NCBI GenBank assembly: GCA_030583825.1
Contig: CP129477.1
Span: forward strand, 909,627-958,220
Reading direction: 5' to 3'
Length of the DNA stretch: 48,594 nucleotides
DNA from: Candidatus Dojkabacteria bacterium
GTDB lineage: Bacteria; Patescibacteriota; Dojkabacteria; GCA-002793355
Shown: positions 1 to 46,049 of the stretch, piece after piece
How positions within the stretch are numbered: position 1 is the first letter of the stretch
How the letters are laid out: each line of letters opens with the position of its first letter
Notes under the pieces: generated by a model
Databases searched by the model: none
What the model saw: the letters and a program-made list of their open reading frames with translations, nothing else
Told to the model about the DNA's origin: nothing
Program-made: the position numbers and the translations under genes

Positions 1-82
1 ATTTTTTCACTTAACGTTCATAAATTCTTCATCGTTTATCATTCAACGTGAAGTGATAAAGTTTTGGAGAGTACTGTAATTT

Positions 83-198
83 AGGGACGAGAAGCTGAGT
101 GAAAAACAGTAGCTGCTCCTACTGTTTTGAACGAAGAAGGGGTCGAGGAGCATACCTTAGGCTTTGAATATAATGCGAGGTGACCGAGTCCCTCCTCC
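83..198 (+). repeat. tRNA-linked mini-element, copy A (ends in a tRNA T-arm/3'-end-like sequence CGAGTCCCTCC)
   Basis: Shares GAAGCTGAGTGAA with the Thr-linked copy, and GGGGTCGAGGAG plus ATAATGCGAGGTGACCGA (18/18) with the Arg-linked copy. It has a 10-bp hairpin at 103-128, and AGGGAC (83-88) pairs with GTCCCT (188-193). Confidence 0.85.
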
Positions 199-219
199 AT
201 GTTTAGCAGAATAATATCT

Positions 220-3138: not shown

Positions 3139-3555
3139 GTGAAACTTCCCTCTCCCGACGTAAAAACGATCTCTCAATATAACGCTGCTCAGCCTGACAG
3201 CTACAAGCAAATTTGCGAGCTACTCAACAAAGAAATTAATCGTCACTTACCAAAAGCAGAAAGCAAATTGTGGCATGGAGCTCCAGTTTGGTTTCTTGAG
3301 GGCAATCCTATCGTAGGCTATCACTTACTGAAAGATGGAGTTCGATTACTTTTCTGGAGCGGTCTCTCTTTTGAAGAGCCTTCCCTTATAAAGGTCGGAA
3401 AAAACTTCCAATCCGCAGGAATTACTTACACAGATGTTGGACAGATAAATCTAGGTGACCTTGAAAGATACCTTAATAAGGCAGAAAGTATACAGTGGGA
3501 TTATAAAAATCTTGTCAAAAGAAAAGGTGAGCTTTTACCGGTAGAAAAAATTTAA
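3139..3555 (+). CDS. DUF1801 (YdhG-like) domain protein
   Basis: LP.AESKLWHGAPVWFL.GNPIVGY...K.GVRLLFWSG.SF.EP pattern. Confidence 0.75.
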   Translation: MKLPSPDVKTISQYNAAQPDSYKQICELLNKEINRHLPKAESKLWHGAPVWFLEGNPIVGYHLLKDGVRLLFWSGLSFEEPSLIKVGKNFQSAGITYTDVGQINLGDLERYLNKAESIQWDYKNLVKRKGELLPVEKI

Positions 3556-3562
3556 TGAAAAA

Positions 3563-3610
3563 GCGGAACCGTAGCGACCAATAGCAACGATTTGCTATTG
3601 TGTTGCAAGG
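3563..3610. repeat. 48-bp dispersed hairpin repeat, copy 1
   Basis: 45/48 identical to 14946-14993; stem CAATAGCAA-cgat-TTGCTATTG. Confidence 0.9.
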
Positions 3611-4054: not shown

Positions 4055-4606
4055 ATGAAAAGTATTCGGTATATTGCGTTACTCCGTGGAATTAACGTTG
4101 GTGGCAACAATATTATCAAAATGGCCGATTTGAAAGCCTGTTTTGAGTCAATGAAATTTGCAAATGTAGTCACATATATTCAAAGTGGCAATGTATTGTT
4201 CGATTCTCTCGAAGAAGATAAAGAAACGCTTGTGGGGTTAATAGAAAAAACGCTTTCGACTCAGTTTAATTATAGCTCAAAAATTGTACTTATTACTGCT
4301 GATCACCTTAGAGAAACTGTAAGTGATGCTCCCAGTGGCTTTGGTCAAAATTTCGAGGAGTATAAATACGATGTATTATTTCTAAAAGAACCTCTTGTTG
4401 CGAAAGAGGCTCTCGGAAGCCTCAAGTTAAGAGATGGCGTAGACAATGCATATGCCGGCAATGGTGTTTTGTATTTTTCGCGTCGGATAAAAGACCTTAC
4501 AAAAAGTTATCTCAGTAAAGTGATATTGCTTCCAATTTACAAAAACATGACAATCCGCAACTGGAACACGACCACAAAGCTATTAAGCTTAGCAAACCCG
4601 CAGTAA
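4055..4606 (+). CDS. DUF1697 domain protein
   Basis: YIALLRGINVGG.N.IKMADL..., V.TYIQSGNV.F and a C-terminal TIRNWNT, all characteristic of the family. Confidence 0.88.
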   Translation: MKSIRYIALLRGINVGGNNIIKMADLKACFESMKFANVVTYIQSGNVLFDSLEEDKETLVGLIEKTLSTQFNYSSKIVLITADHLRETVSDAPSGFGQNFEEYKYDVLFLKEPLVAKEALGSLKLRDGVDNAYAGNGVLYFSRRIKDLTKSYLSKVILLPIYKNMTIRNWNTTTKLLSLANPQ

Positions 4607-6567: not shown

Positions 6568-7843
6568 TCTGAAACTGCTTTAAAAATTCTTCTTTCGATA
6601 AAATCTTCTTTGCCGGTTCTTCTGCTTCTGGTGAATCTCCACTCTTATTTGTGTCTGCAGGCTTTAATTTCTGCGCAGCAGTACTCTTCGTGATAACTGA
6701 GGCCTTTACTTTTTTCGTGGTCTTTTTAGCCTTTTTTACTGTCTCAGAGGATACTCTTTTGCTTGAGATATCAACCTTTCTTTTCTGAAAGTTTGGAAGC
6801 GCTTCTGCAATTTTTTGTTCTGTAGCAACTTCTTTCGCAGAAAGTGCAGGTTTTATTTGTTCTTTCTCTTTCTTTTCTTCTTTGGCGGCTGGTTTAGTTT
6901 TCTCTTTTGCTTTTACTTTTTTCTTAACGACCTTGCCTTTTGAATTTGATTCTTCCGATACAATATCAAGAATAGTTTTCTGGCTGGACATTCCACCAAA
7001 TATGTCTGCAATGCTTTTCTCTTCTCTTTTCTTGTCCATTTTTCTGCGAATAGAAACAGCAACAAGAATAATAATTATGAATAGTGCTCCACCAATGATT
7101 GCGTAAAACTCGTTTGGATTTGTTTGTGTAAATGTTTTAATTCTTTCAACTATTTGTGTTATCTGGTTCTGTGCTTCTTGCACTTGAACTTGTGGGTTAA
7201 CTTCTGCCGAGAATAGCTTATACTCGACTGTTAATGGCTTTGATGCTTCGCTGATAAGACCATTTCTCAATACAAATGCAATAATCGTGTTTTTTCCTTC
7301 TACAGGTTCAGGGAGGATAAATTCCCACTTTCCGTCCTGGTTTGAAGAAAACTTATTCACGGTTGAGCTGTTTACAATAACCATAACTGTTGATTGCGGC
7401 AATGCAGTTCCTGAAAGAACAACCTGGTTTGGACGAACAACTTCTGTTTTGATTGTCTGGTCAAAGATTGGAGGCTTTGGAACAATAATCAATTGTTTTG
7501 AAAGTACTCGGACGAGACCTTCTTTATTTGTAAACTTGAATGTAACCGTATGTGCGCCAATTGGCAAGTTTGGAAGAATGAACGGGCTTGGTGCATTTTG
7601 CGTAATTTGTGTTCCAATGGCAATCTCTACTCCTTTTGAGCTTGGATCAACAAAAGTAACAGGATAATTTGGATCGTCGGAAGTTTCTGGAAGATTTAAA
7701 GAAAGTTCGCGGCTAATAGTTCGTTCTCTTTCTGCTTCTGCATTAAGGATCACCTGTGCTGGAGTTGGTGTTTGTGCCGACGCAACGGGACTAATAATTA
7801 TTACTCCTGCAAGGAGCGCGGCAATGATGAGGCGTTTCTGCAT
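6542..7843 (-). CDS. Hypothetical surface protein: signal peptide, Ig-like beta region, one TM helix, Lys/Ala/Glu-rich cytoplasmic tail
   Basis: MQKRLIIAALLAGVIIISPVASA signal peptide; VVLSGTALPQSTV....SSNQDGKWEF (bacterial Ig-like); TM AIIGGALFIIIILVAVSI. Start 7843 has TGtTACGCT 7 nt upstream. Confidence 0.65.
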   Translation of the reverse strand: MQKRLIIAALLAGVIIISPVASAQTPTPAQVILNAEAERERTISRELSLNLPETSDDPNYPVTFVDPSSKGVEIAIGTQITQNAPSPFILPNLPIGAHTVTFKFTNKEGLVRVLSKQLIIVPKPPIFDQTIKTEVVRPNQVVLSGTALPQSTVMVIVNSSTVNKFSSNQDGKWEFILPEPVEGKNTIIAFVLRNGLISEASKPLTVEYKLFSAEVNPQVQVQEAQNQITQIVERIKTFTQTNPNEFYAIIGGALFIIIILVAVSIRRKMDKKREEKSIADIFGGMSSQKTILDIVSEESNSKGKVVKKKVKAKEKTKPAAKEEKKEKEQIKPALSAKEVATEQKIAEALPNFQKRKVDISSKRVSSETVKKAKKTTKKVKASVITKSTAAQKLKPADTNKSGDSPEAEEPAKKILSKEEFLKQFQTKNEKNDK

Positions 7844-7972
7844 ATAGGTAAGCGTAACAAAGGAAGCTTCGAAAGTCAATCAACAAATCCCCGCGATATC
7901 GAATATAATGCACAAGGTTTGGGAGCTTTTCTTAAATTTGGCGGTTACCTATTTATTAGCGGGATTTTCTTA

Positions 7973-27290: not shown

Positions 27291-27668
27291 CTAGAGATTA
27301 CAGAACAGATCGATTTTATAGCCATCCGGGTCTTCGACAATACAGTATCTTTGTCCCCAAAATGCATCCCACGGCTCTTTCGCTATCTTGAATCCTGCTT
27401 GTGCGATTGCTTCTGCTGCTTTATTCACTTCTTCTGGAGAATCATACTTAATTGCAAATGAAGAGTGATTGCTCGCTCTTGGTTCTTCTCCCAATATCTC
27501 GGTGATAAGTTTCTTTGAGTCAATCATCAATCGTGCACCATTTTTATGTTGTGGTTCGAGATGTTGTTCATCTTCAGCAAATGATTCGAATGTAAAGCCA
27601 AGAAGTGTGTAAAATCGTACGGTTTCTTTGAGATTGGAGCTTGCAACTCCGACTGCGTCAATTGTCAT
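27291..27668 (-). CDS. VOC family protein
   Basis: FYTLLGF at the N-terminus and EPWDAFWGQRY..VEDPDG at the C-terminus. Confidence 0.88.
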   Translation of the reverse strand: MTIDAVGVASSNLKETVRFYTLLGFTFESFAEDEQHLEPQHKNGARLMIDSKKLITEILGEEPRASNHSSFAIKYDSPEEVNKAAEAIAQAGFKIAKEPWDAFWGQRYCIVEDPDGYKIDLFCNL

Positions 27669-27705
27669 GATCTTGTTGATGAAATTTAGGGTTTATGCGT
27701 TTTAT

Positions 27706-27837
27706 GTGGAAGACGGGATGGCGCGACGCTACTTTCGCTGTACTCAAGAGCGAACCTTCATTACTTTAATATATGAGGTTACTCACCGAGGATTCTCACT
27801 CTTGTGTCTATCTACCTTACAGGCAGCTACACACAAA
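27706..27837 (-). repeat. tRNA-Gly(GCC)-linked spacer closed by a duplicate of the tRNA 3' end
   Basis: 27706-27719 matches 27839-27852 at 13/14 positions. The spacer begins with a hairpin sharing TGCCTGT(T)AAGGTA with the one after tRNA-Gly(TCC). Confidence 0.7.
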
Positions 27838-33918: not shown

Positions 33919-33995
33919 ATAAAGTTGTGAGTACTAAAGAATTAAAGCTCAGGGAGGTATGCCAATTATAACTGAGCGGGAATACTACTTTTTTA

Positions 33996-34124
33996 GGTCA
34001 GGGCGGGGTTCGCTCACCTTGTAACAAACCATAATTCGCTCCGCGTCTATAGGTGTTACTACCTCGAGCCCATCTTCGTTCTAAATAGCAAATTGTTGCT
34101 ATTTTTCACTCAGCTTCGAATCCC
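33996..34124 (-). repeat. tRNA-linked mini-element, copy C (tRNA-Thr TGT)
   Basis: GGGATTCGAAGCTGAGTGAA, AAATAGCAA-caat-TTGCTATTT, GAACGAAGA, CTCGAGG and AAGGTGAG|CGAACCCCGCC, the last being a degenerate copy of the Thr CGAATCCCGCC. Confidence 0.8.
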
Positions 34125-34137
34125 TACTTCCCTAAAA

Positions 34138-34176
34138 TTGTTAAAAAATCCTAAACTCCTTAGGATTTTTTAACAA
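34138..34176. terminator. Perfect 17-bp inverted repeat abutting the tRNA-Thr(TGT) 3' end
   Basis: TTGTTAAAAAATCCTAA-actcc-TTAGGATTTTTTAACAA. A terminator or processing role is inferred. Confidence 0.5.
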
Positions 34177-34247
34177 GCCAGAGGCGGGATTCGAACCCGC
34201 GACAAACGGTTTACAAAACCGCTACTCTACCACTGAGTTACTCCGGC
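34176..34247 (-). tRNA. tRNA-Thr(TGT)
   Basis: GCGGT-TTTGTAA-ACCGT anticodon arm; T-arm GCGGG-TTCGAAT-CCCGC. Confidence 0.95.
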
Positions 34248-35823: not shown

Positions 35824-35945
35824 AGAATGCACCCGGAGGGAATCGGTCACCTCGCATTATGCTGAATTACTAATGAATACTCCTCGACCCCGTCCTCACT
35901 TAGAAAAGCAGGAGCAACTGCTTTTCTTCACTCGGTTTCGATTCC
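35824..35945 (-). repeat. tRNA-linked mini-element, copy D (tRNA-Arg), ending in a 22-bp exact duplicate of the tRNA 3' end
   Basis: 35824-35845 equals 36121-36142. All family motifs are present except that ACGAAG is degenerate. Confidence 0.88.
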
Positions 35946-35994
35946 TATCTTTCAGTTAAGAAGTAACACCACATTTCATATGCTGCTACCTCTT

Positions 35995-36120
35995 AATGCA
36001 CCCGGAGGGATACCCAGCTCCGCTTCTCTCGCAAAGCTCGAGTTAGAACCATTCACTTTGTGAAGGTCACTTTCCTTCCCCAGGTATTCTGCGCTATCAC
36101 CTAAAATTAGGTTACACCGC
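35995..36120 (-). repeat. Second tRNA-Arg-linked spacer closed by a 16-bp duplicate of the tRNA 3' end
   Basis: 35995-36010 (AATGCACCCGGAGGGA) equals 36123-36138. Confidence 0.8.
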
Positions 36121-36124
36121 AGAA

Positions 36125-36198
36125 TGCACCCGGAGGGAATCGAACCCCCAACCTTTGGTTCCGCAAACCAATGCTCTATCCAATTGAGCTACGGGTAC
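36125..36198 (-). tRNA. tRNA-Arg(GCG)
   Basis: TTGGT-TTGCGGA-ACCAA anticodon arm; acceptor GTACCCG/CGGGTGC. Confidence 0.93.
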
Positions 36199-45939: not shown

Positions 45940-46012
45940 TTGAGACGGTTATTTGCCTGTTAAGGTAAGTAGCCGCCTCAAGAAAATTACTGGGATTCGA
46001 AACCCGTAACCC
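45940..46012 (+). repeat. Hairpin followed by a near-complete duplicate of the tRNA-Gly(TCC) T-arm/3' end
   Basis: GGGATTCGAAACCCGTAACCC (45992-46012) versus the tRNA GGGTTCGAATCCCGTAACCC; long hairpin at 45940-45981. Confidence 0.75.
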
Positions 46013-46049
46013 ATCTCACTTGGTTATAAGAACGGTTTATATCCTGACC

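Follow-up and report, generated by a model that had tools for sequence, protein, structure and literature searches.

Behind tRNA genes of the 48,594-nt stretch analysed here (positions 909,627 to 958,220 of contig CP129477.1 of a Candidatus Dojkabacteria bacterium; in the following called the window), a family of short, gene-less, structured DNA units was found, each with an end that duplicates the 3' part of the tRNA gene it follows. We propose that these units are miniature, non-autonomous insertion cassettes that are specific for the tRNA T-loop and whose own fold rebuilds the attachment site, a proposal to which we assign about an even chance of being correct. Site-specific insertion into the T-loop is suggested by the repeat, which begins at position C56 and continues into the trailer, by the restored tRNA, by the tandem stacking of units at one tRNA gene, and by the variable occupancy of tRNA genes among relatives; the absence of genes, the many tRNA targets and the covarying fold distinguish the units from integrase arm sites, island remnants and miniature inverted-repeat transposable elements (MITEs).

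tRNA genes are classical landing sites of mobile DNA, but the occupants described so far bring an integrase of their own and keep to a single tRNA. The unit found here has no genes, measures approximately 100–180 nt and stands behind about a dozen tRNA genes (about a quarter) in a roughly 1-Mb genome of the Candidate Phyla Radiation. If its fold is a recombination site, the single-strand, structure-read recombination of integrons and CTXphi would be extended to tRNA targets and to the Patescibacteria; if it is a functional trailer RNA, it would be a tRNA-linked RNA of a new kind, in organisms about whose RNA processing little is known. In practice, short-read assemblies break at tRNA loci because of the cassette repeats, which also predict tRNA genes that lie past a contig end, as was the case at the window start.

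The cassette at the window start and its tRNA-Leu(CAG) gene

The copy nearest to the window start had been delimited in a sequence-only reading as a + strand motif series at 83–198, shared with three tRNA loci further on and predicting a tRNA gene upstream of position 1. All motifs quoted there are present at these coordinates: the arm AGGGAC is followed by GAGAAGCTGAGTGAA at 89–103, GAACGAAGA at 129–137, GGGGTCGAGGAG at 139–150 and ATAATGCGAGGTGAC/CGAGTCCCTCC at 170–195, all on the + strand (here and below, a slash before the tRNA copy marks the body/tail junction). The assumed end at 198 proved too short, since the degenerate copy of the tRNA tail goes on beyond this position; the unit therefore runs to about 203 (see Table 1).

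The predicted upstream tRNA gene exists and is seen in public contigs. The exact product of the methylase gene at 1731–2528 was looked up; four short-read contigs from sludge metagenomes carry an identical product, and two of these (Logan L001 and L003) reach 77 nt upstream of position 1 (TGGCAGACGCGCTAGCTTCAGGAGCTAGTATCAGCAATGGTGTGAGGGTTCGAGTCCCTCTCCCGGCAC). Contigs from other runs that cover the window start showed 0 differences to the window. The Rfam tRNA model gave a 5'-truncated + strand match on the extension (model positions 16–71, E = 5e-4), comprising the 3' two-thirds of a tRNA that ends in ...GGTTCGAGTCCCTCTCCCGGCA, 9 nt before position 1. Based on the anticodon CAG and the long variable arm, the gene encodes tRNA-Leu(CAG); its T-arm is GAGGG-TTCGAGT-CCCTC. 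Hence, the T-arm is found where it had been expected, with the difference that it reads TTCGAGTCCCTCT in place of an anticipated ...CCCTCC. The assignment of the terminal motif to the 3' half of T-loop and T-stem was correct: CGAGTCCCTC is an exact copy (10/10) of the tRNA from C56 through the 3' strand of the T-stem, followed by CTCCATGTT, which is degenerate relative to the acceptor strand TCCCGGCAC. As a result of the degenerate tail and the lack of any covering RNA contig in the metatranscriptomes examined, the Leu copy looks old.

Type A and type B units in the window

An nhmmer profile was built from four copies of this unit (termed type A), three of them from the window and one from the related genome L279. 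In the 48.6-kb window it matched four places and nothing else above noise: 83–197 (+, E = 7e-33), 35946–35833 (−, E = 4e-32), 34125–33999 (−, E = 1e-25) and 15249–15071 (−, E = 4e-6). The first three matches arise by construction because these copies are part of the profile; the copy at tRNA-Val is an independent match. A 21-nt junction motif occurred twice within 3 mismatches and in none of 100 shuffles. In agreement with the three loci counted by the sequence-only reading, the other type A copies are found on the 3' side of tRNA-Arg(gcg), tRNA-Thr(tgt) and tRNA-Val(cac). What it had taken for a further locus of the same kind was resolved differently: another core, termed type B, is present in the first of the units at tRNA-Arg and in the unit at tRNA-Gly(gcc), and it occurs in a short form also at tRNA-Gly(tcc). 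At tRNA-Arg, a type B and a type A unit (B1 and A2) are thus stacked in tandem. In total, of the eight tRNA genes that lie in the window or abut it, six have an A or B unit, the exceptions being tRNA-Thr(ggt) and tRNA-Trp.

Type A units follow a constant order of tRNA, spacer, left arm, P2, P3 and tRNA 3'-part copy, with a gene-less body of about 100–180 nt and a tRNA-to-tail interval of 120–300 nt; in the Arg and Thr copies and in those of the relatives, the spacer contains a terminator-like hairpin. In every type A unit the tRNA copy begins exactly at C56. It matches its own tRNA at 22/22 positions in Arg (including 4 nt beyond the discriminator base) and at 20/20 in Val, and is degenerate in Thr (14/18). 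Core identity amounted to 61–79% and revealed no clear grouping by genome or tRNA; lineage-specific features were confined to the junction and P3 motifs. The two tRNA-Val cassettes of the genome share a 93-nt exact block, after which 3 of 52 positions differ, and their identity ends exactly at the left arm; this near identity indicates that they were recently copied or gene-converted.

As to the type B units, the Y-shaped 5' domain starts 0–3 nt after the tRNA and consists of an outer covarying stem and an inner hairpin, together with G(A/G)TAG; the tail combines the acceptor 3' strand with a whole, degenerate T-arm whose loop is shortened. The motif GAAAGTGA/ACGAAGAA is common to types B and A. 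Type B was located at 36010–36122 (−), 27718–27836 (−) and 45941–46002 (+) in the window, at about 10649–10760 in genome L284 and at about 9526–9675 in L285.

Table 1. Parts of the Leu cassette and positions of the other cassette units in the window.
Feature	Position	Strand	Support
Spacer (3' trailer) between tRNA-Leu(CAG) and cassette body	1–82	+	L001/L003 upstream sequence, truncated tRNA match
Left arm, P1 5' strand AGGGAC, exact reverse complement of GTCCCT (188–193)	83–88	+	Minimum free energy fold pairs both
Purine-rich joining strand J1/2 GAGAAGCTGAGTGA; family form GAGAAAC/CGAAAC..RAG..GAA	89–102	+	Alignments
P2 hairpin, stem 103–112/119–128, loop CTGCTC	103–128	+	Covariation across 8 copies
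Joining strand J2/3 GAACGAAGAAGG	129–140	+	Alignments
P3 5' strand GGTCG	141–145	+	Pairs with 181–185
P4, variable region inside P3; about 35 nt here, about 50–145 nt elsewhere	146–180	+	Alignments, folds
P3 3' strand TGAC/C; body/tail junction between 184 and 185	181–185	+	Compared with tRNA-Leu T-loop
Tail, copy of tRNA-Leu(CAG) 3' part from C56; 188–193 is the P1 3' strand	185–203	+	Sequence comparison
Type A unit behind tRNA-Arg(gcg): spacer hairpin 35994–35946, body 35945–35846, tail 35845–35824	35824–35994	−	
Type B unit between tRNA-Arg and the type A unit: body 36122–36010, tail CCCTCCGGGTGCATT 36009–35995	35995–36122	−	
Type A unit behind tRNA-Thr(tgt): body 34124–34013, degenerate tail 34012–33995	33995–34124	−	RNA contigs over unit
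Expanded type A unit behind tRNA-Val(cac): body 15255–15078 with nested extra hairpin, tail 15077–15058	15058–15255	−	
Type B unit behind tRNA-Gly(gcc): body 27836–27718, tail 27717–27704	27704–27836	−	
Short type B-like unit behind tRNA-Gly(tcc): Y-shaped 5' domain, degenerate T-arm, acceptor 3' strand	45941–46016	+	

A covarying fold across the junction

The type A architecture comprises four elements: P1, formed by the left arm and the start of the tail, the hairpin P2, the helix P3 of 5 bp, and P4, a variable insert within P3. In all eight copies compared (five tRNA species), the left arm is, in fixed register, exactly reverse-complementary to tail positions 56/59–63, as illustrated by the arm/tail pairs AGGGAC and GTCCCT in Leu, GGAATCG and CGATTCC in Arg, and CAATTGG and CCAATTG in Val; in Thr, the left arm GGGATTCG faces the tRNA sequence CGAATCCC. 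A derivation of the arm as a sense remnant of the 5' half of the T-stem was rejected, the arm being exactly antisense to positions 56–63 (GGAATCG versus CGATTCC) and not GGGGGTTCG. The 3' strand of P3 is made up of the last four core bases and C56 (C185 in the Leu copy), and this helix therefore straddles the junction; its versions are GGUCG/UGAC-C, GCUCG/UGAG-C, GGCUG/CAGC-C, GGCUG/UAGC-C and GGGUA/UACC-C. Jointly, P3 and P1 bring both sides of the junction into duplex, from two distant segments of one strand.

Independent minimum free energy (MFE) folds of the eight copies contained P1, P2 and P3 in five cases (both L282 copies, L279, L284 and the Thr copy of the window); the recovery was incomplete for the Leu and Val copies of the window (P1 only) and for the Arg copy (P2 only). 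In a gap-free alignment of the helix strands, which were extracted by hand in a way that favours structure and in which the P1 3' strand is set by the tRNA sequence, 86.9% of the cells were paired, and changes on both sides occurred in 11 of the 21 pairs, a value that was reached by 0 of 500 shuffles; when the partner strand was slid by 1–3 columns, the pairing and covariation signal was lost (near zero). P1, P2 and P3 all covary: both-side changes were found in 5/8 pairs of P2 across the eight copies (95% of cells paired) and in 3/5 pairs of P3, and the pair at tRNA position 59 is seen as U-A, A-U, C-G and G-C. Searches against Rfam, whose families include tRNA, tmRNA, ribozymes and YrlA, retrieved the tRNAs themselves only at gathering thresholds, and nothing credible was obtained on the cassettes at E values up to 10.

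Occupancy of tRNA genes in related genomes

RNase III homologues served as anchors to retrieve the syntenic NusB-RNaseIII-S16-KhpA-tRNA-Arg ... M50-tRNA-Thr region from relatives, namely L279 (92% protein identity), L284 (68%), and L282 and L285/L286 (62%); DMT-transporter homologues were not syntenic. In L279, L282 and L284, type A stands behind tRNA-Thr(tgt), and L282 has a further copy behind tRNA-Thr(ggt); type B was found at tRNA-Arg of L284 and L285/L286. The tRNA-targeting view of the sequence-only reading holds for every copy in the window and in these four related genomes. Each copy of the relatives possesses its own matched tail and left arm: the T-loop sequence CGATT of L284 pairs with the arm GGGAATCG, and in the Thr(ggt) unit of L282 the corresponding sequences are CGACTCCC and GGGAGTCG. 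The repeat has a length of 10 nt in L279, about 20 nt in the window and about 38 and 55 nt in L282, and it extends beyond the tRNA end by 2–4 nt in the window and by about 17 nt (Thr(ggt)) and 37 nt (Thr(tgt)) in L282. Because the repeat includes non-tRNA trailer, it reflects a duplication at the DNA level and not merely mimicry at the RNA level.

Occupancy differs between close relatives. tRNA-Arg is empty in L282, and tRNA-Thr(ggt) is occupied in L282 only, the window and L279 having no unit there. The tRNA-Arg end (...GCATT) of L279 directly abuts a homologue of the A2 spacer hairpin of the window (47 of 64 columns identical, 0/2000 shuffles), and unit B1 is absent; B1 with its 15-nt repeat CCCTCCGGGTGCATT was therefore either gained in the lineage of the window or precisely lost in L279. 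Comparison of L279 positions 4247–4404 with window positions 36125–35824 revealed that the type A core behind tRNA-Arg is decayed in L279 and lacks a tail. The spacers at tRNA-Thr(tgt) of the window and L279 can be aligned (38/58, 0/2000 shuffles), at a coding DNA identity of only 74–83%; the alignable spacers identify the Thr(tgt) cassettes, as well as the Arg A2 spacer, as orthologous between the two genomes. Type A cassettes have so far been seen in Dojkabacteria only.

Transcription

In three metatranscriptomes of one study, examined over 9 kb, error-free contigs were confined to the cassettes, to khpA and to the 5' end of the gene that follows the Gly unit. RNA contigs with 0 mismatches cover 34088–34247, 33965–34115, 35925–36075 (the B1/A2 boundary) and 27556–27755 (the Gly unit). 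The contig at 34088–34247 (−) starts exactly at the 5' end of mature tRNA-Thr(tgt) and runs through the terminator-like spacer hairpin into the cassette; these limits indicate a Thr precursor that is processed at its 5' end and unprocessed at its 3' end. A fourth metatranscriptome, from another study, gave short matches only, on tRNA genes. Sigma-70-like promoters precede the tRNA genes, and none stands separately before the cassettes; the cassettes are therefore parts of pre-tRNA trailers. A 208-nt RNA contig at tRNA-Val was discarded as an assembly chimera of the two Val copies, whose ends are not RNA ends.

Proposed mechanism and competing explanations

According to the mechanism proposed here, the cassette would have been inserted site-specifically into the T-loop of tRNA-Leu(CAG), between T55 and C56. 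The present tRNA 3' part with its spacer of ~90 nt would constitute the tRNA side of the insertion (attL-like), the displaced original 3' part the degenerate tail at 185–203 (attR-like). The cassette would be moved by a recombinase that is encoded elsewhere and acts on one strand, with the fold serving as attachment site in the manner of the folded single-stranded attC of integrons and attP of CTXphi, where one strand is exchanged and replication completes the reaction (integron attC, PMC4792948; CTXphi attP, PMC3442271). It is by analogy to these systems that we infer the step at a folded attachment site. After insertion, the unit may have persisted for long in the pre-tRNA trailer, where the left arm would keep the displaced tRNA fragment paired.

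Several observations weigh against this proposal. The tRNA-to-tail intervals contain no open reading frame (ORF) of at least 60 aa, and neither a recombinase nor another ORF was present inside or beside the cassettes, which also lack a coding frame consistent across copies on either strand. No autonomous relative turned up in collections of viral, metagenome and genome sequences: when these were scanned for the core pattern, genome contigs gave 64 matches, metagenome contigs 80 and four scans of viral sequences 1 to at least 120 each, all of them chance matches according to nhmmer screening (the single viral match, L416, lies in apparent coding sequence). Contigs from eight sludge and bioreactor DNA runs had the same arrangement as the window, and neither empty-site joints nor circle joints (...GCGAGGTGAC directly on CGA, the tRNA 3' end and the spacer, with GGTGAC at the body end) occurred in these Logan contigs, which drop rare variants. 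The repeat length varies from 10 to 55 nt, and a recombinase with a fixed attP does not account for a tail and an internal arm that match at least 8 different tRNAs; none of the readings explains how tail and arm come to match each new tRNA. The folding energy of the window copies is unremarkable (z −0.4 to −1.6) and strong in L279 only (z −7.4), and both strands fold about equally well. Moreover, the orthologous Thr(tgt) cassettes of the window and L279 keep P2 and P3 via compensatory changes, which points to selection on the fold in place and not to ongoing movement.

The latter observation speaks for the main rival view, that the units are dedicated, structured 3' trailer RNAs of pre-tRNAs that are not mobile, an explanation we hold to be possible and less probable than insertion. 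Such an RNA would influence, in cis or in trans, the maturation or stability of the tRNA or termination, or would serve the tRNA 3' half as a decoy or antisense partner; its inheritance would be vertical, with selection or gene conversion keeping it matched to the tRNA. This is consistent with the mismatch-free RNA contigs over the cassettes, most neighbouring protein genes being without any, with the location of the promoters at the tRNA genes, with the extension of P1 by non-tRNA sequence in L279, L282 and L284, with tails and left arms that track species-specific tRNA variants (such as the T-loop/arm pair of L284), and with the fifth position of P3, which is most often G-U. It leaves unexplained the presence of up to 37 nt of non-tRNA trailer in the repeat, the stacking of two unrelated cores and the presence or absence of units at the same tRNA in close relatives; decay without replacement (tRNA-Arg in L279, the Leu tail in the window), the missing Rfam match and the lack of an RNA contig over the Leu copy also argue against it, and the spread to many tRNAs would still require copying at the DNA level. 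Insertion and a trailer RNA are, however, not mutually exclusive. More speculatively, the cassettes might be a tRNA-based counterpart of integron cassettes, specified by structure and folded from a single strand, with the T-arms of many different tRNA genes as landing sites and with a target that the arm and the tRNA-end copy would set in a re-settable way, or else pre-tRNA trailer RNAs that switch between an antisense arm and a decoy of their own tRNA 3' half. Each of these, if true, would be a system without a described relative; we regard this as a doubtful extension of either idea.

Displaced tRNA 3' fragments are the usual mark of tRNA-integrated islands. The units might accordingly be the attR-side ends left over from larger islands or integrative and conjugative elements (ICEs) with serine or tyrosine integrases, the remainder of which was deleted; a serine integrase gene that overlaps tRNA-Leu(tag) in the relative L076 and the low-GC restriction-modification (R-M) genes adjoining the Leu copy would agree with such an origin. 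However, random deletion remnants would not be expected to share a conserved size and fold, with covariation, at several tRNAs of five genomes, the L076 element possesses neither a type A or B core nor a tail repeat of at least 14 nt, and the R-M genes lie outside the tRNA-to-tail interval, so that we consider this origin improbable. Still more remote is a descent from tandem tRNA duplications, in which the tails would be pseudo-tRNA 3' halves of decayed second copies, with unrelated sequence in between. The type B tails do keep a degenerate whole T-arm, at tRNA-Gly(gcc) together with the variable-loop sequence GTCGCG, whereas the type A tails start sharply at C56 in all copies and are preceded by a shared, conserved non-tRNA core; the Rfam tRNA model matched no cassette, and no intermediates with D or anticodon arms were seen upstream of type A tails. 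Both island remnants and decayed tandem tRNA copies thus fit poorly.

Comparison with known elements and RNAs

No described element or RNA family matched the cassette in the searches made here. P4-like islands recombine in the tRNA T-loop. With elements attached at this site, such as mycobacteriophage Ms6 at tRNA-Ala (PMC1762012), the cassettes have in common the intact tRNA, the insert and a displaced direct repeat that reaches from the T-loop past the tRNA end, as well as tandem accretion at the same tRNA. In contrast to these elements, they contain no integrase or other gene, the insert comprises 120–300 bp, the same core occurs at many tRNAs with matched repeats, and an antisense internal arm and a covarying three-helix fold take the place of arm-type binding sites. 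Cis-mobilizable elements (CIMEs) derive from known ICEs or integrative mobilizable elements, share a single att site and are kilobases long. They are att-flanked remnants without recombination genes (PMC5704250) and resemble the cassettes in being gene-poor, att-flanked, non-autonomous and presumably moved in trans. The cassettes differ from them by their multiple targets and the lack of a known parent element.

The attC sites of integrons have a length of about 60–140 nt, which is in a similar range. In attC and in CTXphi attP, one strand forms an imperfect hairpin that restores a duplex site spanning the crossover point, the structure is conserved above the sequence, and arrays form at one landing site (PMC4792948; PMC3442271), all of which is paralleled by the cassettes. 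The likeness is a structural one, known here from sequence and fold; the landing site of the cassettes would be a tRNA T-arm, and their flanking repeat is 10–55 nt long and not 6–7 nt. The junctions read GGTGAC/CGA, GGGYAGC/CGA or GGGGTACC/CGA; neither a GTTRRRY/RYYYAAC core nor a dif-like XerC/XerD site was noticed on reading them (no motif scan was made), and no IntI gene was present in the stretches read. Like the cassettes, MITEs are small, non-coding and present in multiple copies; their termini show inverted complementarity, and their RNA folds like a hairpin. In the cassettes, however, the "inverted repeats" vary from site to site and come from the tRNA that is targeted, the flanking repeat is long and differs in length, one defined position within tRNA genes is the target, and there are neither constant ends nor a duplication of fixed length. 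In the tmRNA gene (ssrA) islands of Dehalococcoides, repeated 3' ends of the gene mark successive insertions, and integrases are carried. A small-RNA gene is the insertion site of acquired islands there as well, and in contrast to the cassettes these islands carry genes (PMC3146451).

Further identities were tried and rejected. The 36-codon open antisense frame of the Leu copy has an early in-register stop in the Arg copy, and no frame is shared, which disposes of antisense coding. By inspection, the variable J1/2 strand (CUGAGUGA) does not fit the hammerhead core CUGANGA, and a group I intron is excluded by a body that ends in C, not G, and is far too small. A retron or diversity-generating retroelement was set aside since the vicinity has no reverse transcriptase and the copies do not differ specifically at A positions. 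A TnpB-type guide RNA or IS200/IS605 end was dismissed because the tail is not free at its start, where its first 5–8 nt pair with the left arm; TnpA and TnpB genes were absent from the vicinity of the cassettes.

Restriction-modification genes, serine recombinase and small repeats

The R-M genes at 220–2528 encode a MutH-like nuclease and two methylases. They begin 17 nt downstream of the Leu tail and have a GC content of 0.33–0.35 in comparison to about 0.39 around them; according to the sequence-only reading, the element may mark the border of this island. A second copy of the tail that would bound these genes was not found, and a VOC-protein homologue was not syntenic. A 3.7-kb contig with the R-M genes extends from the tRNA-Leu locus at one end to a 65-nt repeat at the other. 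In L076, the serine recombinase gene (7419–9266, 604 aa) reaches with its last 52 nt antisense into tRNA-Leu(tag).

Two small repeats were noted in addition. The tRNA-Val cassette contains a nested block of 40 nt at 15143–15182 (−) with the hairpin GAAAAGCAACAATTTGCTTTTC, which has 3–4 times the single-copy depth and is a separate small repeat inserted there; the loop AGCAACAATTTGCT of its hairpin also forms P2 of the tRNA-Thr cassette. A repeat of ~65 nt with the hairpin CAATAGCAACGATTTGCTATTG is present at 3546–3610 and 14929–14993 (+), the copies being 89% identical. Short-read contigs break at this repeat. In DNA contigs, its words are about 5 times as deep as those around it, so several further copies exist in the genome.

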